From Cetorhinus maximus (taxonomy: Eukaryota), in the NCBI RefSeq assembly GCF_964194155.1, contig NC_135901.1, positions 5,518,001 to 5,582,000 on the forward strand: a stretch of 64,000 bases of DNA, in the 5' to 3' direction. Shown here one piece after another: positions 2,967-61,642 of the stretch; the stretch's first letter is position 1; every line of letters starts with the position of its first letter. A program made the position numbers and the translations under genes. A model generated the notes under the pieces. It saw only the letters and a list, made by a program, of their open reading frames with translations, was not told where the DNA came from and searched no databases.

Positions 2967-2974
2967 ATGCAAAT
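2967..2974 (+). promoter_or_regulatory. octamer (Oct-1) distal sequence element of the U1 gene
   Basis: Perfect ATGCAAAT about 205 bp upstream of the U1 start, the usual DSE position for snRNA genes. Confidence 0.65.
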
Positions 2975-3171
2975 ATAAATGGAGGACAGTATATCAGCTA
3001 CCTTTTCTCCATCTAGAGGGATAGTTAAGCATGTTCTACAATACATGAGAAAAACTGAGCTGTTTAATGGAAAAATATGAACAGGGTGACGTTATGATTT
3101 TTAAAAATTAGTGTATGTGACTATGAGAGGTAGTGCTTGATGCCGGCTGGCAGCGTGTGAGAGTTTAGGGC

Positions 3172-3222
3172 ATACTTACCTGGCAGGGGAGCAAACAATG
3201 ATCATGCAGATTGTTCTCCCAG
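3172..3222 (+). ncRNA. RNU1: U1 snRNA, 5' part (nt 1-51), interrupted by a retrotransposon
   Basis: ATACTTACCTGGCAGGGGAG...ATGATCATGCAGATTGTTCTCCCAG matches the U1 5' splice-site recognition end and stem-loop I. Confidence 0.95.
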
Positions 3223-3890
3223 TCCCCGTCAGATCCTTCCTACACGCCAGGAGTCTCACCCCCTCTGCACGATGCCCTCGAGGTGGCTGTGGTGGGGAAG
3301 AGACCGTTGTTCACCTCCTTGTGGATTGTGCCTTTGCAAAGAAAGTCTGGAGAGAGATGCAGTGGTTGCTGTCGAGGTTCATCCCGAGCAGTTCTGTGAC
3401 ACAGGACTCTGTGCTCTACGGGCTGTTCCCAGGGACACACACCGAGACAAACATCAACTGCAGCTGGAGGATCATCAACTCGGTGAAAGACGCGCTTTGG
3501 TCTGCCCGAAACTTGTTGGTCTTCCAGCACAAAGATTTGTCCCCGACCGATTGTTGCGGACTGGCACAATCCAAAGTCCAGGACTACGTGCTGAGGGACG
3601 CACTAAAGCTTGGGGCAGCTGCCGCAAAGGCGCAATGGGGAAGGGTCGCTGTCTAAGACCTTTCTACCACAGCGCACCGAGAGACTGGGAACTGTTTAGA
3701 GCCCCTCGGGCTGTACAGATCAAAATGAAAGGCTGTAAATGACTGTAATATTGTTTGTACTGATGCACCTGGTGATACATTTTGTAAAAGTTTAACCTGG
3801 ATTGTACCCTTGTAATGTTGTCTTTGAAATGGTTTTGAATGTGATTGAAGATTTTTATGAATAAAGTATATTTTTACAAAAAAAAAAAAA
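3223..3890 (+). mobile_element. 5'-truncated Tx1/L1-clade non-LTR retrotransposon inserted in U1
   Basis: Uninterrupted ORF2 C-terminus with zf-RVT-type knuckle (CPRGGCGGEETVVHLLVDCAFAKKVW), stop at 3654-3656, AATAAA at 3860-3865 and A13 at 3878-3890. Flanked by the TSD GATTGTTCTCCCAG (3209-3222 and 3891-3904). Confidence 0.9.
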
Positions 3891-4018
3891 GATTGTTCTC
3901 CCAGGACGAGGCTATCCCATTGCACTTCGGGTGTGCTGATGCCTGCGATGTCCCCAAATGCGGGATACTCGACTGCAAAATTTGTGGTAGTGGGGGACTG
4001 CGTTCGCGCTCTCCCCTG
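3891..4018 (+). ncRNA. RNU1: U1 snRNA, 3' part (includes duplicated target site)
   Basis: Stem-loop II ATTGCAC loop, Sm site AATTTGTGG (3979-3987) and stem-loop IV GGGGGACTGCGTTCGCGCTCTCCCCTG. Confidence 0.95.
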
Positions 4019-4040
4019 GTTTTTAATTCAAAAAATAGAC
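4019..4040 (+). terminator. snRNA 3' box
   Basis: GTTTTTAATTCAAAAAATAGAC just downstream of U1 resembles the GTTYN(0-3)AAARRYAGA consensus. Confidence 0.6.
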
Positions 4041-6003: not shown

Positions 6004-6762
6004 ATGGTGAAACCGTGGAAATGTGGGAACTGTGGGAAGGGATTTGGTTCCCCATCAAAGCTGGAAATTCATCAACGCAGCCACACTGGGGAGAGGCCAT
6101 TCACCTGCTCCGTGTGTGGGAAGGGATTCACTCATTCATCCAGCTTTCTGAGACACTAGCACATTCACACTGAGCAGAGTTCAGTCATCTGCTCCGTGTG
6201 TGGGAAGGCAATCGGTCATTCATCAAACTTTCTGAGGCACCAGCAAACTCACAGTTTAGAGAGGCAGTTCACATTCTCTGTGCGCGGGAAGGGATTCACT
6301 CAGTCATCCTACCTGCTGACACACCAGCGCATTCACACAAGGGAGAGTCCATTCATCTGTTCCTTGTGTGGAGAGGGATTTAACCGATTATCCAGGCTTC
6401 TGACTCACCAGAGCATTCACACTGGGGAAAGTCCATACACCTGCTTTATCTGTGGGAAGGAATTTAATCGGCCATCCAAACTACTGACACACCAACGAAT
6501 TCACACTGGGGAGAGGCCATTCACCTGCTCCATGTGTGGAAAGGGATACACCAATTCATCTGACCTGTTGACACATCAGCGAGTTCACACTGGCGAGAGG
6601 CCATTCACATGTTCCATGTGTGGAAAAGGATTCATTCGGTCATCCCACCTTCTGACACATCAACTTGTTCATACTGATCAGAGACCTTTTAAATGTTCTG
6701 ACTGTGAGAAGACCTTTAAAAGTGAAAAGGATCTGATTACACACCAGCGAGTTCACGAGTGA
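6004..6762 (+). pseudogene. C2H2 zinc-finger locus 1 (9 finger units), probable pseudogene
   Basis: accATG at 6004; in-frame TAG at 6157-6159 in finger 2; the same frame continues to TGA at 6762; finger 4 has lost both Cys; acceptor AG at 5764-5765. Confidence 0.8.
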
Positions 6763-12319: not shown

Positions 12320-13054
12320 ATGTTCTGTGTCTGGACAAGGTTTCAACTAATCATTCAACCTGGAGAGACACAAGGACACCCACACTATGGAGAACTGTGG
12401 AAATGTGAGGACTGTGGGAAAGGATTCAGTTACCCATCCCTGCTGGAAAACCATCGACGCAGTCACACAGGGGAAAGGCCATTCACCTGCTCTGTGTGTG
12501 GGGAGGGATTTACTCAGTCATCTGGCCTTTGGTCACACCAGCGAATTCACACTGAGGAGAAGCTATTCAGCTGCACTTCCTGTGGAAAGAGGTTCAGGCA
12601 CTCTTCAGCACTCACTGTACAACAATGCACCCAAATTGGGGAGAGGCCGTTCACCTGCTCCGAGTGTGGGAAGGGATTCACTCAGTCATTCCATCTTCTG
12701 ACACACCAGCGAGTTCACACTGGAGAGAGGCTGTTCACTTGCACTTCCTGTGGAAAGAGTTTCAGACAGGCATCCTCCCTCATTTTACACCAGCGAGTTC
12801 ACACTGCGGAGAGACCGTTCACATGCTCCGTTTGTGGGAAAGGATTCAGTCGGTCATCCAACCTCACTGCACACCAGCGAGTTCACACTAGGGAGAGGCT
12901 GTTCACTTGCTCGCTGTGTGGGAAGGGATTTGCAAAGTCTTTCAACCTGCTGACCACCAACGCACTCACATTGAGAAGAGGTTATTCAACTCTCGGTGTG
13001 TGGGAAGGGATTCACTCAGTCACGATGCCTCCTGAGACATCAGCAAGTTCATAA
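12320..13054 (+). CDS. C2H2 zinc-finger locus 2, degenerate (5 intact fingers; possibly a pseudogene)
   Basis: 244-aa ORF. The family-typical ATG (12387) is out of frame owing to a 1-nt deletion, finger 3 lacks both His, and there is a frameshift in finger 7. Acceptor AG at 12025-12026. Confidence 0.6.
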   Translation: MFCVWTRFQLIIQPGETQGHPHYGELWKCEDCGKGFSYPSLLENHRRSHTGERPFTCSVCGEGFTQSSGLWSHQRIHTEEKLFSCTSCGKRFRHSSALTVQQCTQIGERPFTCSECGKGFTQSFHLLTHQRVHTGERLFTCTSCGKSFRQASSLILHQRVHTAERPFTCSVCGKGFSRSSNLTAHQRVHTRERLFTCSLCGKGFAKSFNLLTTNALTLRRGYSTLGVWEGIHSVTMPPETSASS

Positions 13055-16692: not shown

Positions 16693-18486
16693 ATGGAAGG
16701 AAAAAGTACCATTCACAGTGGAGAGAAATCGTACATGTGTTCTGTGTGTAGACGAGGCTTCAACCGATCATCTGGCCTGTCAAGACACCAGCGCAGCCAC
16801 ATCGGGGAGAAACCATGGAAATGTGGGGACTGGGGGAAGGGATTCAGATTCCCGTCAGAGCTGGAAGAGCATCGGCGGAGTCACACTGGGGAGAGGCCGT
16901 TCACCTGCTCAACGTGTGGGAAGGGGTTTACTCTTTCAAGCTACCTGCTGAGCCACCAGCGAGTTCACAGTGAAGAGAGACCTTTTAAATGCCCAGACTG
17001 TGGGAAGTGCTTTAAAAGTTCCTGCGAGCTGATGTCCCATCAACGTGTTCACACTGACGAGAGACCGTTCAGGTGCTCTCAATGCAGGACTGGGTTCTGG
17101 CGATCATTTCAACTCACTGTACACCAGCGAATTCACACTGGGGAGAGGCCATTCACCTGCCCTCAGTGTGGGAAGGGATTCACTCAGTCATCTCACCTGC
17201 TGACACACCAGCGAGTTCACACTGGGGAGAGGCCATTCACCTGCCCCCAGTGTGAGAAGGGATTCACTCAGTTATCTAGCCTGCTGACACACCAACGATT
17301 TCACACTGGGGAGAGGCCATTCACCTGCCCTCAGTGTGGGAAGAGATTCACTACCTCATCCAAGCTGCTGACACACCAGCAAATTCACACTGGGGAGAAG
17401 CCATTCATCTGCCCTCAGTGTGGGAAGAGATTCACTACCTCATCCAACCTGCTGGCACACCAACGAATTCACACTGGGGAGAAGCCATTCATCTGCCCTC
17501 AGTGTGGGAAGGGATTCACTCAGTTATCTAGCCTGCTGACACACCAACGAATTCACACTGGGGAGAAGCCATTCACCTGCCCTCAGTGTGGGAAGGGGTT
17601 CACTCAGTCATCTCACCTGCTGACACACCAGCGAGTTCACACTGGGGAGAGGCCATTCACCTGCCCTCAGTGTGGGAAGGGATTCACTCAGTCATCTCAC
17701 CTGCTGACACACCAGCGAGTTCACACTGGGGAGAGGCCATTCACCTGCCCCCAGTGTGAGAAGGGATTCACTCAGTTATCTAGCCTGCTGACACACCAAC
17801 GATTTCACACTGGGGAGAGGCCATTCACCTGCCCTCAGTGTGGGAAGAGATTCACTACCTCATCCAAGCTGCTGACACACCAGCAAATTCACACTGGGGA
17901 GAAGCCATTCATCTGCCCTCAGTGTGGGAAGAGATTCACTACCTCATCCAACCTGCTGGCACACCAACGAATTCACACTGGGGAGAAGCCATTCATCTGC
18001 CCTCAGTGTGGGAAGGGATTCACTCAGTTATCTAGCCTGCTGACACACCAACGAATTCACACTGGGGAGAAGCCATTCACCTGCCCTCAGTGTGGGAAGG
18101 GGTTCACTCAGTCATCTCACCTGCTGACACACCAGCGAGTTCACACTGGGGAGAGGCCATTCACCTGCCCTCAGTGTGGGAAGAGATTCACTACCTCATC
18201 CAACCTGCTGACACACCAACGAATTCACACTGGGGAGAGGCCATTCACTTGCCTCCAGTGTGGGAAGGCATTTATTAATTCATCCCACCTGCTGACACAC
18301 CAACGAATTCACACTGGGGAGAAGCCATTCACCTGCCCCCGTTGTGGGAAGGGATTCACTACCTCATCCAAGCTGCTGACACACCAACGAGTTCACACTG
18401 GGGAGAGGCCATTCATCTGCCCCCATTGTGGGAAAGGATTCACTACCTCATCCAACCTGCTGACACACCAGCGAGTTCACAAGTAA
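16693..18486 (+). CDS. C2H2 zinc-finger protein, 21 fingers, 597 aa (locus 3)
   Basis: Intact ORF from aacATGG at 16693 with TGE(R/K)PF linkers, ending HQRVHK*; acceptor AG at 16584-16585; conserved 3' UTR with AATAAA at about 18611. Confidence 0.92.
17132..18183 (+). repeat. 504-bp (6-finger) tandem duplication within the ZNF array
   Basis: Fingers 6-11 equal fingers 12-17; identical off-frame ORFs at 17334 and 17838 are offset by 504 bp. Confidence 0.9.
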
Positions 18487-29194: not shown

Positions 29195-29780
29195 ACGGAG
29201 AAATCGTGGAAATGTGGGGACTGTGGAACTGGATTCATTTCCCCATCCCAGCTGGAAATTCATTGGCGCATTCACACTGGGGAGAGGCCGTTCACCAGCA
29301 CCGATTGTGGGAAGGGTTTCACGCAGTTATCAAATCTTCTGACACACCAGCGTGTTCACAGTGGCTTGAGGCCGTTCAGCTGTTCCGTGTGCGGGAAGGG
29401 ATTCATGAGCTCATCTAACCTGGGGACCCACCAGCGAGTTCACACTGGGGAGAGGCCATTCACCTGCTCTGTGTGGGAAAGGCTTCACTCAGTCATCTGC
29501 TCTGCTGACACATCAACTTGTTCACAGTGATCAGAGATTGTTTAAATGCTCTGACTGTGAGAAGAGTTTCAAAGGACCAATAAATCTGCTGAAACACCAG
29601 CGAGTTCACACTGGGAAGAGGCTGTTCACCTGCTGTGTGTGGGAAGAGATTCACTCGGTCGCATAACCTGCACAGACACCAGCGAGTTTACACTGGGGAG
29701 AGGCCTTTCAACTGCCCCATCTGTGGGAAGGGATTCACTTTTTCATCTAACTTGAAGAGACACCAGAAATTTCACATATG
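29195..29780 (+). pseudogene. C2H2 zinc-finger pseudogene (locus 4, about 7 finger units)
   Basis: Family start codon mutated to ACG at 29195; frameshifts near 29470 and 29635; acceptor AG at 28800-28801. Confidence 0.85.
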
Positions 29781-34284: not shown

Positions 34285-35322
34285 TCACTTGTGAACTCGC
34301 TGGTGTGTCACTAGGTAGGATAAGCGAGTGAATCCCTTCCCACACTTGGAGCAGGTGAACGACTTCAACCCAGTGTGAACTTGCTGGTGTATCAGCAGGT
34401 TGGATGACTGAGTGAATCCCTTCCCACACTCAGAGCAGGTGAACGGCCTCTCCCCAGTGTGAATTCGCTGGTGTGCAGTGAGATGAAATGATTGCCTGAA
34501 CCCAGTCCCACAGTGAGAGCATCTGAATGGTTTCTCATCAGTGTGAATACGTTGGTGGTATTGCAGATCCCCAGAACTTTTAAAGCACTTTCCACAGTCT
34601 GGACATTTAAATGGTCTCTCGTCAGTGTGAACTCGCTGGTGTCTCAGCAGGTGGGGTTTCTGAGTGAATTTCTTCCCACACTCAGAGCAGGTGAACGGCC
34701 TCTCCCCAGTGTGGGTGCGCTGGTGTGCAGTGAGATGAGATGGTTGCCTGAACCCAGTCCCGCAGTGAAAGCACCTGAACGGTCTCTCATCAGTGTGAAT
34801 ACGTTGATGACATTGTTGATGCCCAGAACTTTTGAAGCACTTCCCACAGTCTGGACATTTAAACGGCCTCTCGTCAGTGTGAACTCGCAGGTGTTTCAGA
34901 AGGCGGGATGATGTCCTGAGCTTCTTCCCACACTGTGAGCAGCTGAATGGTGCATACGCAGTGTGAATGCGCTGGTGCTCCCTCAGTCCATGTGGGTTTT
35001 TAAAGCTCTTTTCACAGTCGGGGCATTTAAACTCTCTCTTGTCAGTGTGAACTTGCTGGTGTTCCAGCAGGTGGGATGAGCGAGTGAATCCTTTTCCACA
35101 CGTGGAGCAGGTGAAAGGCCTCTCCCCAGTGTGAAGTCGCTGGTGTCTCTGAAGGCAGATTAACTGAGTGAATCCCTTCCCACACACGGAGCAGATGAAC
35201 GGCCTCTCCCCAGTGTGACTGCGTCGATGAGTTTCCAGATTAGACGGGGATCTGAATCCCTTCCCACAGTCCCCACATTTCCACGGTTTCTCCCTGGTGT
35301 AAACGGTGCTTTTTGCTTCCAT
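34285..35322 (-). CDS. C2H2 zinc-finger protein, 12 fingers, 345 aa (locus 5)
   Basis: Intact ORF from ATG at 35322, ending HQRVHK*; acceptor at 35426-35427; putative donor G/GTGAGA at 37827; conserved 3' UTR. Confidence 0.9.
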
Positions 35323-46019: not shown

Positions 46020-46694
46020 TCACTTGTGAACACGCTGGTGTGTCTGCAGGTGGGATGACTGAGTGAATCCCTTCCCACATACAGAGCAGATGAATGGCCT
46101 CTCCCCGGTGTGAACTCGCTGGTGCCTCTGTAAGCTGGATAATCGCGTGAATCCCTTCCCACACTGAGAGCAGGGGAATGACCTCTCCCCAGTGTGAAGT
46201 TGCTGGTGTAGCAGCAGGTTGGATGACTGGGTGAAATCCTTCCCACACACAGAGCAGGTGAACGGCCTCTCCCCGGTGTGGACTCGCTGATGTGTCTGCA
46301 AGTTGAATAACCGAGTGAATCCTTTCCCACAATGAGAGCAGGTGAATGGCCTCTCCCCGGTGTGAACTTCCTGGTGTGTTAGCAGGTTGGATAACTGGGT
46401 GAATCCCTTCCCACACTCAGAGCAGGTGAACGGCCTCTCTCCAGTGTGAACTCGCTGGTGTCTCAGCAGGGTTGATGAATCACTGAATCCCTTGCCACAC
46501 TGAGAGCAGGTGAATAGCCTCTCCACTGCATGAACTCGCTGGTGTGCGTGCAGCTGCCATGAACCACTGAATGCCTTCCCACACTCACAGCAGGTGAATG
46601 GCCTCTCCCCAGTGTGACTGCGTTGATGAATTTCCATTGCAGACGGGCATCGGAATCCCTTCCCACAATCTCTACATTTCCATCGTTTCTCCAT
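46020..46694 (-). CDS. C2H2 zinc-finger protein, 8 fingers, 224 aa (locus 8)
   Basis: accATGG at 46694, intact fingers, ending HQRVHK*; acceptor at 47046-47047; putative donor GTGAGT at 48056. Confidence 0.88.
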
Positions 46695-51432: not shown

Positions 51433-52275
51433 ATGGAGAAACCGTACAAATGTGGGGACTGTGGGAAGGGATTCTGCACCCCATCTGCGCTGGAAACTCA
51501 TCAACGCATTCACACTGGGGAGAGGCCTTTCACCTGCTCTGAGTGTGGGAAAGCATTCGCTCAGTCATCCACCCTGCTGAAACACCAGCGAGTTCACTCC
51601 GGGGAGAGGCCTTTCGTCTGCTCTGAATGTGGGAAGGGATTCAGTAATTCATCTCACCTGCTGACACACAAGCGAGTTCACACTGGGGAGAGGCCATTTA
51701 TCTGCTCTGAGTGTGGGAAGGCATTCACTCAGTCATCCAACCTGCTGATGCACCAGCGAGTTCACACCAGGGAGAGGCCATTCACCTGCCCTGAGTGTGG
51801 GAAGGGATTCAGCGATTCATCTGCCCTCCTGACACACCAGCGGGTTCACACCGGGGAGAAGCCTTTCATCTGCTCTACATGTGGGAAGGGATTCCCTCAG
51901 TCATCCAACCTGCTGACACACCAGCGAGTTCACACCGGGGAGAGGCCTTTCATCTGTTCCGAGTGTGGGAAAGGATTCACTCAATTATCCCACCTGCAGA
52001 CACACCAACGTGTTCACAATGGGAAGAGGCCATTCACTTGCTCTGGATGTGGGAAAGGATTCATTCAGTTATGCAACCTGGTGATGCATCAGCGAGTTCA
52101 CACCAGGGAGAGACCGTCCATCTGCTCTGAATGTGGGAAGGGATTCAGAGATTCATCCACCCTGCTGAGACACCAGCGAATTCATACTGGTGAGAGGCCA
52201 TTCACCTGCTCTATGTGTGGGAAGGGTTTCAGTCAGTTATCCAGTCTGCTGAGACACCAGCGAGTTCACAAGTAA
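51433..52275 (+). CDS. C2H2 zinc-finger protein, 10 fingers, 280 aa (locus 9)
   Basis: accATGG start, MEKPYKC..., intact fingers, ending HQRVHK*; acceptor AG at 51078-51079. Confidence 0.9.
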
Positions 52276-58240: not shown

Positions 58241-60895
58241 AACTGCATCCAATTGGTTGTAAAATTACAGGGATTTGACTGACTATTTCTCAAGCAGGAA
58301 AACTCTCAGTTTCTGCTGCTGCTGCTTCTCACCTTTGGGCAGCTTTGTGGTTTCCTGGCGGGCTTTTCAAAAAAATTGGAATTGCAAAGCTGCCTGAAGG
58401 TCGGAGGCAGCAGCAGCGACTCGTGAAATTGACCTGACACTGACAGACTGGCTTCGAAAATATCAGAACTCTCAGCCTGACAGATCTGTTTTTTTTAAGC
58501 TGGTCTGTCAGGTCTGTAGCTCTGGCTGCTCAGTGAGGATGATGCAAAACTGTTTGAAACAACGAGCCCAGCCCACACCTACTCACCTCCCCCACCCACA
58601 ACATCCCAGGGCCTGCTGTTTGGCACTGTCTGAACCCCACTCTCCCGGGCCTTGATCCCTGGTGTCTTGGGCCAATATTTATCCTTCAATCAACATAACC
58701 ACAAACATATCATTTGGGTCATTATCACATTTCTGTTTGTGGGATCTTGCCGTGTGCAAATTGCCTGCCGAGTTTCCAAAATTACAACAGTGACTACATT
58801 TCAAAAGTGGCTGTAAAACGCTTTGAAACATCCTGTGGTTGTGAAAGGCGCTATAGAAATGCAAATCCTTGTTTAATTGTCAGCAAATTTGGATGCATTA
58901 CACTCAGTCCCTCATCTCGATCATTCATAAGGATTGAGACCTCATTTTGTGTATGAAGCTCCTGGTTGACACCTTTCCGAATGCTTTTTGAAAGTCCAAA
59001 TACACCACACACAAGATGAGGAATTATTTGTTTTAAAAACACAGCGAATTGTTACAATTTGGAATCCACTGCCTCAAAACCGACTGGAAGTAAATTCAAC
59101 TGTATCGTTCAAAAGGGAACTGGACAGATTCTTGAAAGAAAAAGAAAATTGCAGGGCAATGGGATTAATGGGAAAACTCTTTCAAAGAGCCTCCAATTGC
59201 CTCCTACTGTGCTCTATGAGCCTCATGTGCATTTAAAGGATCTTCAATTGTGGGTGACATATTAAAGCAATCAGTGCCTCCTCTTCTCTGTATGTTTAGT
59301 TTAACACTTAAATCTCCCCTTCACATTCTCTGAAGTGGCAGATGGAGTTTAATACAGGGAAAGTTGAGGTGATGTAATTTGGCAGAAGGGACAGGTAGAG
59401 GCAACACAGATGTAATGGCACAGTTTCAAAGAGTGAGCAGGGACAGAGGGACATGGGGGTTCATGTGCAGAGATCTTTGAAGGTGGCAGGACACAGTGAG
59501 AGAGGAATTAGCAAAGCATGTGGGATCTTGAGCTTCAGAAATAGAGAGCTTGGGTTGGATCTTCGGTACCGAGGTGGGTAGCTTGGATCTGGAAATTTTC
59601 CAATTGCCGGACCTGCCTCGGTTTAAAAGTTCCCAAATGTTGTGATCTTCACTCGGGGGCGGGGGGAGGGGGTGGTGCTTTGAGGTGGGCGGTTATGGAT
59701 CGAGTTGGTTGCTGTGCCACCGGAATCGGAGCTTAGGCGGGTAACAGGATGCCCGAGCACTGAGGTGTGCTGGTTAAAAGGCCCGCCTCCATTCTCTGGG
59801 ACTTGATCCCAGTTGTATTGTAACCTTTTGGAATCTCTGGTCTTCGCCAGTGGCACCCACATGCCAAGAGAATGTTTTAAAAATAAATTAATAGACATGA
59901 TTATTTGGAATAATTGCCCACCCACCAGGGGCAGCAGTCCAACACAATTGCTCCTCACTAAATGCAAGTAAGCCAATTGTAAGCCCCCATCCCACCCCAA
60001 GGCCCTTATACACTCCATGCCAGCTCATGCCAATTCTTGCCCTGGCATGGAGAGCAAGGAATTTAAAAAAGACTTTCGATCATGACAGTTAAACAGACCC
60101 TATCCACCCAACAAGAGTCTTTGCGTCTACTCCATAAAGTCGTGACTTTCACACTATGAATTAACTCCCTTGCAGAAGGCAAAATGGTGCCTGTTTGAAC
60201 TCAGTGCTGAGTTCAGATGGCTCTGCTGAGTTCAGGTTCAACTTGGGTGTGAATCAAGCCCTGCCCCTGTCCCCTACTGGCAAAAATTGGATCTGTGAAA
60301 AATGGGAGTGGGACTTCCGCATCCGGGTCCCACCCACGATTTTTGAAGGTAGGTGAGTCTTTCTGACTCTGAAAATCCAGGTTATTGAGTAAAGAAGCAG
60401 GGAAGTGACATTGAACCATCATAAAGCTCTGATACTCTGAAGCCAAAATGGACATGTCCAGGCATTGCAACATTTTTGAATTCAACTAAATGCTGAGGTC
60501 ACGTGAGGATTCTGGTGAATTCTCCATGGCAACGACTTGACCAATCACAGCTGACTTGCCAACTGATGAGCACCCTTTTCTCACGCAGTATAAATAGTTG
60601 CTCCCTTTGAAATTTGGTGTTCTTGTGTCTGTCCTGATCAGTGCAATATGAAAACTTCGAGAGCATGTCTCTTTTTGCAGCAATAAATGACCTTCATCAG
60701 CTTCTGTGGAACATTTCAGTGGAAATGTGCACTCCCAGACCACTGGAAACAAAGTTGTAAGACTGGCCAGTACAGCAGAAAGAAACCCTTTGACCTTCCC
60801 ACTTCACCAACTGTCAGAATGAACATGGTTCAGTCTAGAATGTGATTGACAGCAGCAATCACAGCAGAATCCAACCCCTGTAATCACTGGTGAAC

Positions 60896-61642
60896 TCACT
60901 GGTGTCTCAGCAGGTGAGATTTCCGAGTGAATCGTTTCCCACACACGGAGCAGGTGAACGGCCTCTCCCCAGTGTGAACACCCTGGTGTCGCAGAAGGGT
61001 GGATGAATCACTGAATCCCTTCCCACACTCACAGCAGATGAAAGGCCTCTCCCCAGTGTGAACTCGCTGGTGTGTCAGCAGGTTGGTTAACTGAGTGAAA
61101 CCCTTCCCACACATGGAGCAGCTGAAAGGCCTCTCCCCAGTGTGAACTCGCCGGTGCTTCCGCAAGATGGATGGATCAGCAAATCCCTTCCCACACTCAG
61201 AGCAGGTGAACGGCCTCTCCCTAGTGTGAGCTCGCTGGTGTCGCAGAAGGTTGCATAATCGACTGAATTGCTTCCCACATACAGAGCAGTTGAATAATTT
61301 GTCCCCAGTATGAACTCGCTGGTGTATCAGCAGGCTGGATGAATCACTGAAACCTTTCCCACATTTGGAGCAGGTGAACGGTCTCTCCCCCGTGTGAACT
61401 CGCTGGTGTGTCCGCAGATTGGAAGAGTTAGTGAATCCCTTCCCACAATCAGAGCAGGTGAATGGCCTCTCCCCGGTGTGAAGTCGCTGGTGTATCTGCA
61501 GGTGGGATAACTGAGTGAATCCCTTTCCACAATCAGAGCAGGTGAACGGCCTCTCCCCAGTGTGAATGCGGCGATGAGATTCCAGTGCAGATGGGGACCG
61601 GAATCCCTTCCCACATTCCCCACATTTGCATGGTTTCTCCAT
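60896..61642 (-). CDS. C2H2 zinc-finger protein, 8 complete fingers plus a truncated 9th, 248 aa (locus 10)
   Basis: accATGG start; premature TGA at the HQR position with the ancestral stop at 60884-60886; acceptor at 61997-61998; putative donor G/GTAAAG at 63349. Confidence 0.85.

Follow-up and report, generated by a model that had tools for sequence, protein, structure and literature searches.

A U1 snRNA 5' end that passes directly into the 3' tail of a LINE, behind a likely U1 promoter, raises the question of whether a new SINE is arising at this locus or whether a mobile element has inserted into a U1 gene. The second is the case: the gene is split by an insertion. Our full explanation, to which we give a probability of about 0.72, is that a Keno-like Tx1 element, truncated at its 5' end, inserted once and very recently at a repeatedly used site in U1, that this repeats the event by which the family captured its U1 head, and that the locus is a dead end so far.

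A U1 gene interrupted by a LINE 3' end

The locus at 3172-4018 is the sole U1 locus in the window, by which we mean the whole 64-kb stretch of DNA that was analysed, and it is interrupted by a 668-bp LINE 3' end (Table 1). The preliminary description had reported 51 nt of U1 fused to a LINE 3' tail and poly(A), and this is what we find: U1 nt 51, at 3222, meets the LINE at CTCCCAG/TCCCCGTCAG, the U1 5' part and the LINE piece together measure 719 nt (3172-3890), and the body is pure Tx1 tail, identical to the 3' end of the family described below. The target-site duplication sits inside U1, and the U1 part of 3172-3890 lies outside the inserted unit. Since the duplication is within U1 and the U1 3' half follows directly after the insert, the structure is that of an insertion into a U1 gene and not of a retrocopied chimera.

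Table 1. Features of the split U1 locus and of the surrounding window
Feature	Position	Strand	Remarks
Octamer ATGCAAAT, likely distal U1 promoter element	2967..2974	+	at -205; same position in intact sister genes
Conserved upstream block -56 to -37, likely proximal element (PSE), putative function	3116..3135	+	common to octamer-bearing U1 loci
U1 snRNA gene 5' part, nt 1-51 of a 165-nt variant	3172..3222	+	5' splice-site-pairing end, stem-loop I region
Chimeric frame, 152 aa, U1 ATG in frame with ORF2 residues 993-1135	3198..3656	+	likely non-functional
Left target-site duplication GATTGTTCTCCCAG	3209..3222	+	14 bp; 15 bp with A3208
5'-truncated Tx1-type LINE 3' end	3223..3890	+	ORF2 tail to 3656, then 3' UTR
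Poly(A) signal AATAAA	3860-3865	+	within LINE piece 3223-3890
A-tract A13	3878-3890	+	3' end of LINE piece
Right target-site duplication	3891..3904	+	second copy of GATTGTTCTCCCAG
U1 gene 3' part, nt 38-165, with Sm site	3891..4018	+	Rfam U1 match; directly after LINE A-tract
3' box-like sequence	4019..4039	+	identical to intact sister gene L052
C2H2 zinc-finger arrays	6082-6698, 12463-13022, 17121-18481, 29271-29750, 34290-35218, 46025-46617, 51509-52270, 60890-61566

Seven sister U1 loci carry the empty site, with 98.7-99.6% identity over 551 nt upstream, ending at the junction; together with the target duplication, these empty-site paralogues rule out chance as the origin of the split-gene structure. 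Compared with its closest sister (L052), the locus differs on the 5' side at 6 of 1551 nt; among these is a G-to-A change at U1 nt 39, with the A in both copies of the duplication. The insert itself shows 0 differences from family copy L001 in 655 nt. Judged by its sequence, the locus arose when target-primed insertion struck a complete U1 gene very recently, likely inactivating this one U1 copy. That the change at nt 39 created the target was considered and rejected, G-bearing sister genes having been targeted at the same offset. The sequence directly behind the gene resembles a 3' box consensus and is probably its 3' box. Folding of 3172-3300 gave a hairpin over the stem-loop I region with z = 0.10, which lends no weight to a special structure. 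The block at 3116..3135 lies where a PSE is expected in snRNA promoters according to the available text of PMC4494074.

The U1 variant itself has a remodelled stem-loop I, with AACAAT/GTTGTT arms, one extra base and the loop GAUCAUGCAG; it is common to 3172-3222 of the window and to L049, L050, L052-L055 and L059, a duplicated gene group on C24. The window is also a C2H2 zinc-finger gene cluster with 84-bp arrays, and the zinc-finger frame nearest the U1 locus has internal stops.

As the preliminary description had it, the U1-internal ATG at 3198 is in frame with the retrotransposon C-terminus for 152 aa. Residues 1-9 derive from U1 and the junction codon, and residues 10-152 correspond to ORF2 993-1135, with 141 of 143 identical to the reference copy. 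Part of the zf-RVT domain is included in this frame, and the endonuclease and RT domains are absent from it. No function is indicated and the frame is likely non-functional; an in-frame join at this ATG is expected in one case out of three by chance and is not informative on its own.

A young Keno-like LINE family

The family's tail is present in at least 40 copies at ~100% identity (40 of 40 scored candidates; 889 first-look candidates), with diverse flanks. L064, a full-length copy of 5.26 kb, encodes an ORF1 of 519 aa, in which ZCCHC3-like and CCHC domains are recognised, and an ORF2 of 1135 aa with Exo_endo_phos (AP endonuclease), RVT_1 and zf-RVT domains, the best solved relative of which is L1 ORF2p. 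A protein search with ORF2 returned unnamed relatives, at up to 48% identity among long matches, as well as shark proteins that carry ORF2 pieces and make a cartilaginous fish the likely host; no named Keno or Tx1 reference sequence was among the matches of that search. We regard the family as a young Keno-like LINE, probably of the Tx1 clade to judge by the target site and the CCHC-knuckle ORF1.

All 20 full-length copies fetched have a U2-derived head, mostly from U2 nt 1-3, and 19 of the 20 are without an upstream octamer. Targeting is loose, because most sampled copies are outside snRNA genes: in a sample of 30, the 28 other copies were at unrelated or tandem sites. One full-length copy starts just behind a tRNA-Phe gene (L137:425-497), and further repeatedly targeted sites are a repeat starting TTCTGGGAGAAGTCA (L009, L024, L365) and a satellite with TCTGGGAAGAGTG (L019, L139).

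Recurrent insertion into U1 and U2 genes

A genome-wide pattern search for poly(A) joined to the U1 3' half gave 168 overlapping matches, and every one of the 19 distinct loci examined terminates in a tail of this family, 83-99% identical. Among 40 larger stretches the position of the join ranges over U1 ~27-41, most often 37, and the 3' flank of the U1 gene itself follows. Differing offsets, truncation points or U1 paralogues point to ~14 independent U1 insertion events by hand count, a figure that is approximate because many loci are rearranged (most U1-3'-flanked loci being without a U1 5' half within 8.5 kb) and in which the many C29/C30 junctions that share one 3' flank count as one event. 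The sole U1 control, a 30-nt window at U1 ~56-86, had no poly(A)-join match.

For poly(A) joined to U2 39-52 there were 3021 forward (overlapping) and 431 reverse matches, with a Tx1 tail upstream in 14 of 15 loci examined. Insertion here is at U2 nt 37/38, which is the Keno site, and the flank equals the Keno 3' target as quoted in the available part of PMC6136364. Truncated copies occupy 6 of 18 U2-array genes with shared upstream sequence, and Tx1 is at the Keno site in 6 of 12 U2 units from 400 kb of array, a set that overlaps the 18 genes and includes one seamless full-length copy. The motif (T/G)GTTCT stands just past the join at both the U1 and the U2 site, and we infer an endonuclease preference for a site of this type; enrichment at flanks is modest, TTC being found at 17 of 55 insertion flanks against a background of 16% and GTTC at 5 of 55 against 3%, the flanks not being independent. 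By these joins U1 is a recurrent target of the family besides the Keno site of U2, alongside genome-wide dispersal. For U1, the available part of PMC4640811 (2015) names no targeting elements other than Dada DNA transposons, and neither a U1-targeting Tx1 nor an element of this type in sharks was found in the papers searched.

snRNA heads and compound copies

The U1 5' end joined to the start of ORF1 has 104 matches, and 48 of the 100 listed belong to one tandem array. This array (C14:24.55-24.74 Mb, L281), with 48 units among the matches listed, repeats a unit of ~3.6 kb in which a U1 head is joined to ~124 nt from the start of Tx1. In alignment the heads form a series, from an intact U1 1-57 in L274, where ORF1 is open for 532 aa from the U1 ATG 26, through a 6-nt in-frame deletion to a 12-nt deletion preceded by a U2 head. 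When 107 headed copies are placed in a tree (midpoint root, head labels assigned by pattern without a hand check, copies chosen by head searches), those with U2 plus a U1 remnant fall into one group (90/92), nested among U1-headed copies, and at least five head changes are required. Stacked heads also occur: a U1 head preceded by U2 1-52 (L290, L296), the usual head preceded by U2 1-45 to 1-50 (L288, L294) and, in L279, U1 1-45 under a U1 promoter followed by a U2 head. Five older copies (L173, L177, L178, L182, L185) carry a U2 head in place of the whole U1 head, including the U1 ATG. Short heads were read by eye and by pattern; an Rfam scan of 19 loci for heads returned a single sub-threshold U2 match, and a script for target-site duplications (TSDs) found them for 3 of 8 U1-headed copies. 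A 12-nt U2 piece in L003 was considered as a template switch and rejected, being a duplication of the downstream element's head.

Full-length copies also reside in snRNA genes. At C713 a copy with open ORF1 (520 aa) and ORF2 sits seamlessly behind U2 upstream DNA and is followed by the U2 3' half; its U1 analogue, L148/L190, consists of octamer, U1 head, an older full-length copy and the U1 3' half. An upstream octamer was not found at the U2 array genes, so that the term U2 promoter rests on shared upstream DNA.

Compound copies are composed of Tx1, an A-tract, a U2 spacer from the Keno nick and a truncated Tx1-An, and 6 of 20 dispersed ones lie within one clear non-U2 TSD. The downstream modules of the dispersed compound copies are nearly all different, which means that many source loci are needed. 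Inside a 16-bp TSD, L366 begins at U2 +1 and also comprises the U2 3' half together with ~70 nt of the genomic sequence flanking it. L290 (G000:C4:66246398 onward) is an A-tailed retrocopy of ~310 nt in which U2 1-52 is followed by a Tx1 start with a U1 head and by an entire U1 plus 3' flank; it is bounded by a 14-bp TSD, is single-copy and is SINEU-2-like in its make-up. L289 consists of U2 1-45 and an A-tail.

Search for offspring of the locus

The preliminary description took the locus for a possible proto-SINEU, a chimera mobilisable in trans, looked to a genome search for dispersed copies of its junction, and named a single-copy, untranscribed junction as the contrary outcome. The junction is single-copy, with one match at up to 1 mismatch in the 3.99-Gb assembly, which is one half of that outcome. 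The exact 20-mer of the U1 5' end has 117 matches, and we classified 100 of these (15 by pattern only, 2 of them checked, and 5 by Rfam table only). Full-length U1 accounts for 33 and heads of full-length Tx1 5' ends for 65, the latter being without promoter in 62 cases, in a gene remnant in one and behind a U1 promoter in two; the remaining two are a promoter with U1 and unrelated sequence and the locus 3172-4018 itself. Dispersed copies of U1 with a short tail number 0 among these 100 U1 5' ends, listed from the 117 matches, in a search that diverged copies would escape.

A U2/U1 SINE family was likewise not found, the U2-U1 junction pattern having 2 matches, the L290 junction 1, and 14 of 15 Keno-site tails being Tx1, in a search by exact patterns that misses diverged or truncated copies and covers 100 of 117 U1 and 30 of 32 U2 5' ends. 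We see no sign of offspring of the locus or of a U1-headed SINE, and the locus is likely a dead-end seed of the head-capture step. What survives of the suggested SINE-creating step is that an event of this type is able to furnish a Tx1 body with an snRNA head, as has happened repeatedly in the family; the locus as a SINE does not.

Origin of the heads

Copies resident in snRNA genes would, we propose, be transcribed from the snRNA promoter at +1, reading through poly(A) signals, and would give rise to the dispersed copies that have no promoter; on this view a head would comprise the snRNA from +1 as far as the target duplication reaches. L366 suggests such read-through at a U2 gene, as it carries the U2 3' half and flank within its own TSD. 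As far as the available texts go, snRNA promoters are external (PMC5493778), and transcription from U1 promoters tends to pass over poly(A) signals, with long transcripts behaving like mRNA (PMC2241894). The locus 3172-4018 would be a repeat of the event from which the family's U1 head arose, though here the body is truncated, and as a seed not capable of coding it would need ORF1 and ORF2 in trans. L290 and L289 show that template jumping onto snRNA also occurs, and both routes, read-through and template jumping, probably operate. More broadly, and tentatively, since we think it somewhat more apt to fail than to hold in full, a family without a promoter of its own may cycle between U1 and U2 genes, taking from them promoter, head, start codon and homing target; truncated copies would seed SINEU-type elements, and the heads of crocodilian SINEU and Tx1-Mar elements would be fossils of such insertions and not only of template switching.

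The heads could instead stem mainly from template switching of the RT onto free U1 and U2 RNA, as in Kojima's SINEU model, the insertions in snRNA genes then being by-products aided by homology between head and target, and the source of neither heads nor transcripts. This is the route favoured in the available text of PMC4494074, and it gains from the diversity of compound copies and from L290 and L289, which are products of a jump or of mobilisation in trans. A whole chimera inside one TSD, without snRNA promoter or 3' flank, is found at L290 and is not found at 3172-4018, where the duplication (3209-3222/3891-3904) shows that the U1 locus itself is no template switch. Template switching as the main source of heads nevertheless seems unlikely: the head ends (U2 43-53, U1 57) coincide with, or slightly overshoot, the positions where TSDs end in gene-resident insertions (U2 46-52, U1 ~47-53), L366 has U2 genomic flank inside one TSD, the spacers start at the Keno nick, implying a DNA target, and dispersed copies begin at snRNA +1 with no promoter.

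Less probable still is an active proto-SINEU, transcribed from the U1 promoter and mobilised in trans, with present or future dispersed offspring. The near-identity of the promoter region to that of intact genes, the identity of the tail to the youngest family members, the existence of copies with open ORF1 and ORF2 that could act in trans and the retrotransposition of compound U2-derived units all agree with this idea, but the single junction match, the lack of dispersed short-tail copies among the 100 classified U1 5' ends, the mere 2 U2-U1 junction copies of the tested form and the tendency of U1-promoter transcripts to ignore poly(A) signals (PMC2241894, in its available part) make it very improbable. 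That U1 was struck by chance, with no target preference, by a family that is after all abundant and dispersed, is scarcely credible: ~14 independent events fall in a ~15-nt window against 0 in the 30-nt control, 100,000 copies would by a hand estimate place ~0.04 in ~1,500 target bases of a 4.0-Gb genome, and the differing offsets and truncation points exclude a single ancestral event for all U1 cases. An insertion by the Keno-like family at its recurrent U1 site is the reading that we prefer.

Comparison with known systems

Keno is a U2-specific member of the Tx1 clade, its U2 target being described in the available parts of PMC6136364, PMC4640811 (section 6) and PMC4494074. Like Keno, the shark family has an AP-type endonuclease and an RT in ORF2 and inserts 37 nt into U2, with the 3' flank TCTGTTCTTATCAGTTTAAT / TCTGTTCTTATCAG (compared with PMC6136364); unlike Keno, it is not restricted to U2, having a recurrent U1 site, many dispersed copies and heads from U1 and U2. 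The crocodilian Tx1-Mar elements with snRNA heads (Tx1-2_Crp, Tx1-2B_Crp and Tx1-4_AMi from U1, Tx1-11_Crp from U2) are, in the available text of PMC4494074, old, at 85-87% to consensus, and prefer Mariner-N4 (Mariner-N4_AMi). They too are Keno-related Tx1 LINEs with a 5' end from U1 or U2, whereas the shark family is young, lies within the snRNA genes themselves and has ORF1 open from the U1 ATG.

The preliminary description treated it as established that SINEUs join snRNA heads to L1/Tx1 tails. The available text of PMC4494074 reports otherwise: SINEUs are multi-copy, shorter than 500 bp and have bodies that are not LINE 3' ends, the 3' half of SINEU-1 resembling no Repbase LINE, SINEU-2 being U1 plus U2 and SINEU-3 an internally deleted U2, and the forms with an snRNA head on a Tx1 body are the Tx1-Mar LINEs. 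The shark material resembles SINEU in that U1-derived sequence precedes the LINE piece at 3172, though as the host gene's own 5' end, in the 3' poly(A) tail and in the recurrent gain of U1 and U2 heads; the U1/U2 junction of SINEU-2, at consensus 53-58 (PMC4494074), is near the end of the family's U1 head. Unlike a SINEU, the locus is single-copy, with its head outside the mobile unit, a length of 719 nt and a Tx1 3' end as body. The same text describes mammalian snRNA/LINE template-switch chimeras and tailless snRNA retrocopies; the chimeras likewise fuse an snRNA 5' part to a LINE 3' end, but they are retrocopies, whereas the U1 locus still has its upstream DNA as well as the 3' half and 3' flank of the gene.

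What the locus and its family allow is of wider interest. Kojima's 2015 paper (PMC4494074), in its available text, left open how SINEUs are transcribed without an internal promoter and how heads are gained, with a preference for template switching for the heads. The shark genome holds all stages side by side: the empty gene, the truncated insertion, the seamless full-length copy behind snRNA upstream DNA and dispersed offspring headed at +1 with snRNA flank; a young family with all of these makes the question directly testable. U1 is added as a recurrent LINE target, and a start codon is taken from a non-coding RNA. If the promoter-borrowing cycle is real, it describes a non-LTR retrotransposon with a recurrent U1 target, which was not found in the literature searched. 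Taken alone, the locus is likely a dead-end insertion in one of many U1 copies, and a clean example of the head-capture step.

R2, in 28S rRNA genes, is unlike the shark family in that its endonuclease is restriction-like, its target is transcribed by Pol I and its insertion is strictly site-specific. The two have in common that they are likely transcribed together with the target gene from its promoter and joined at the 5' end with the help of homology (cited in the available text of PMC4494074).

Rearranged snRNA loci

On C29 and C30 (L166-L187) one Tx1-U1 3' junction has been multiplied into dozens of copies with different 5' partners, some of them behind U2 3' halves, which suggests recombination between Tx1 copies at U1 and U2 loci. 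In L151 and L163, and for U2 in L298, an intact snRNA gene with several hundred bases of 3' flank stands before the element and the gene's 3' half after it; these loci look like a very long target duplication that spares the functional gene, which recalls the Utopia case in the available part of PMC4640811.
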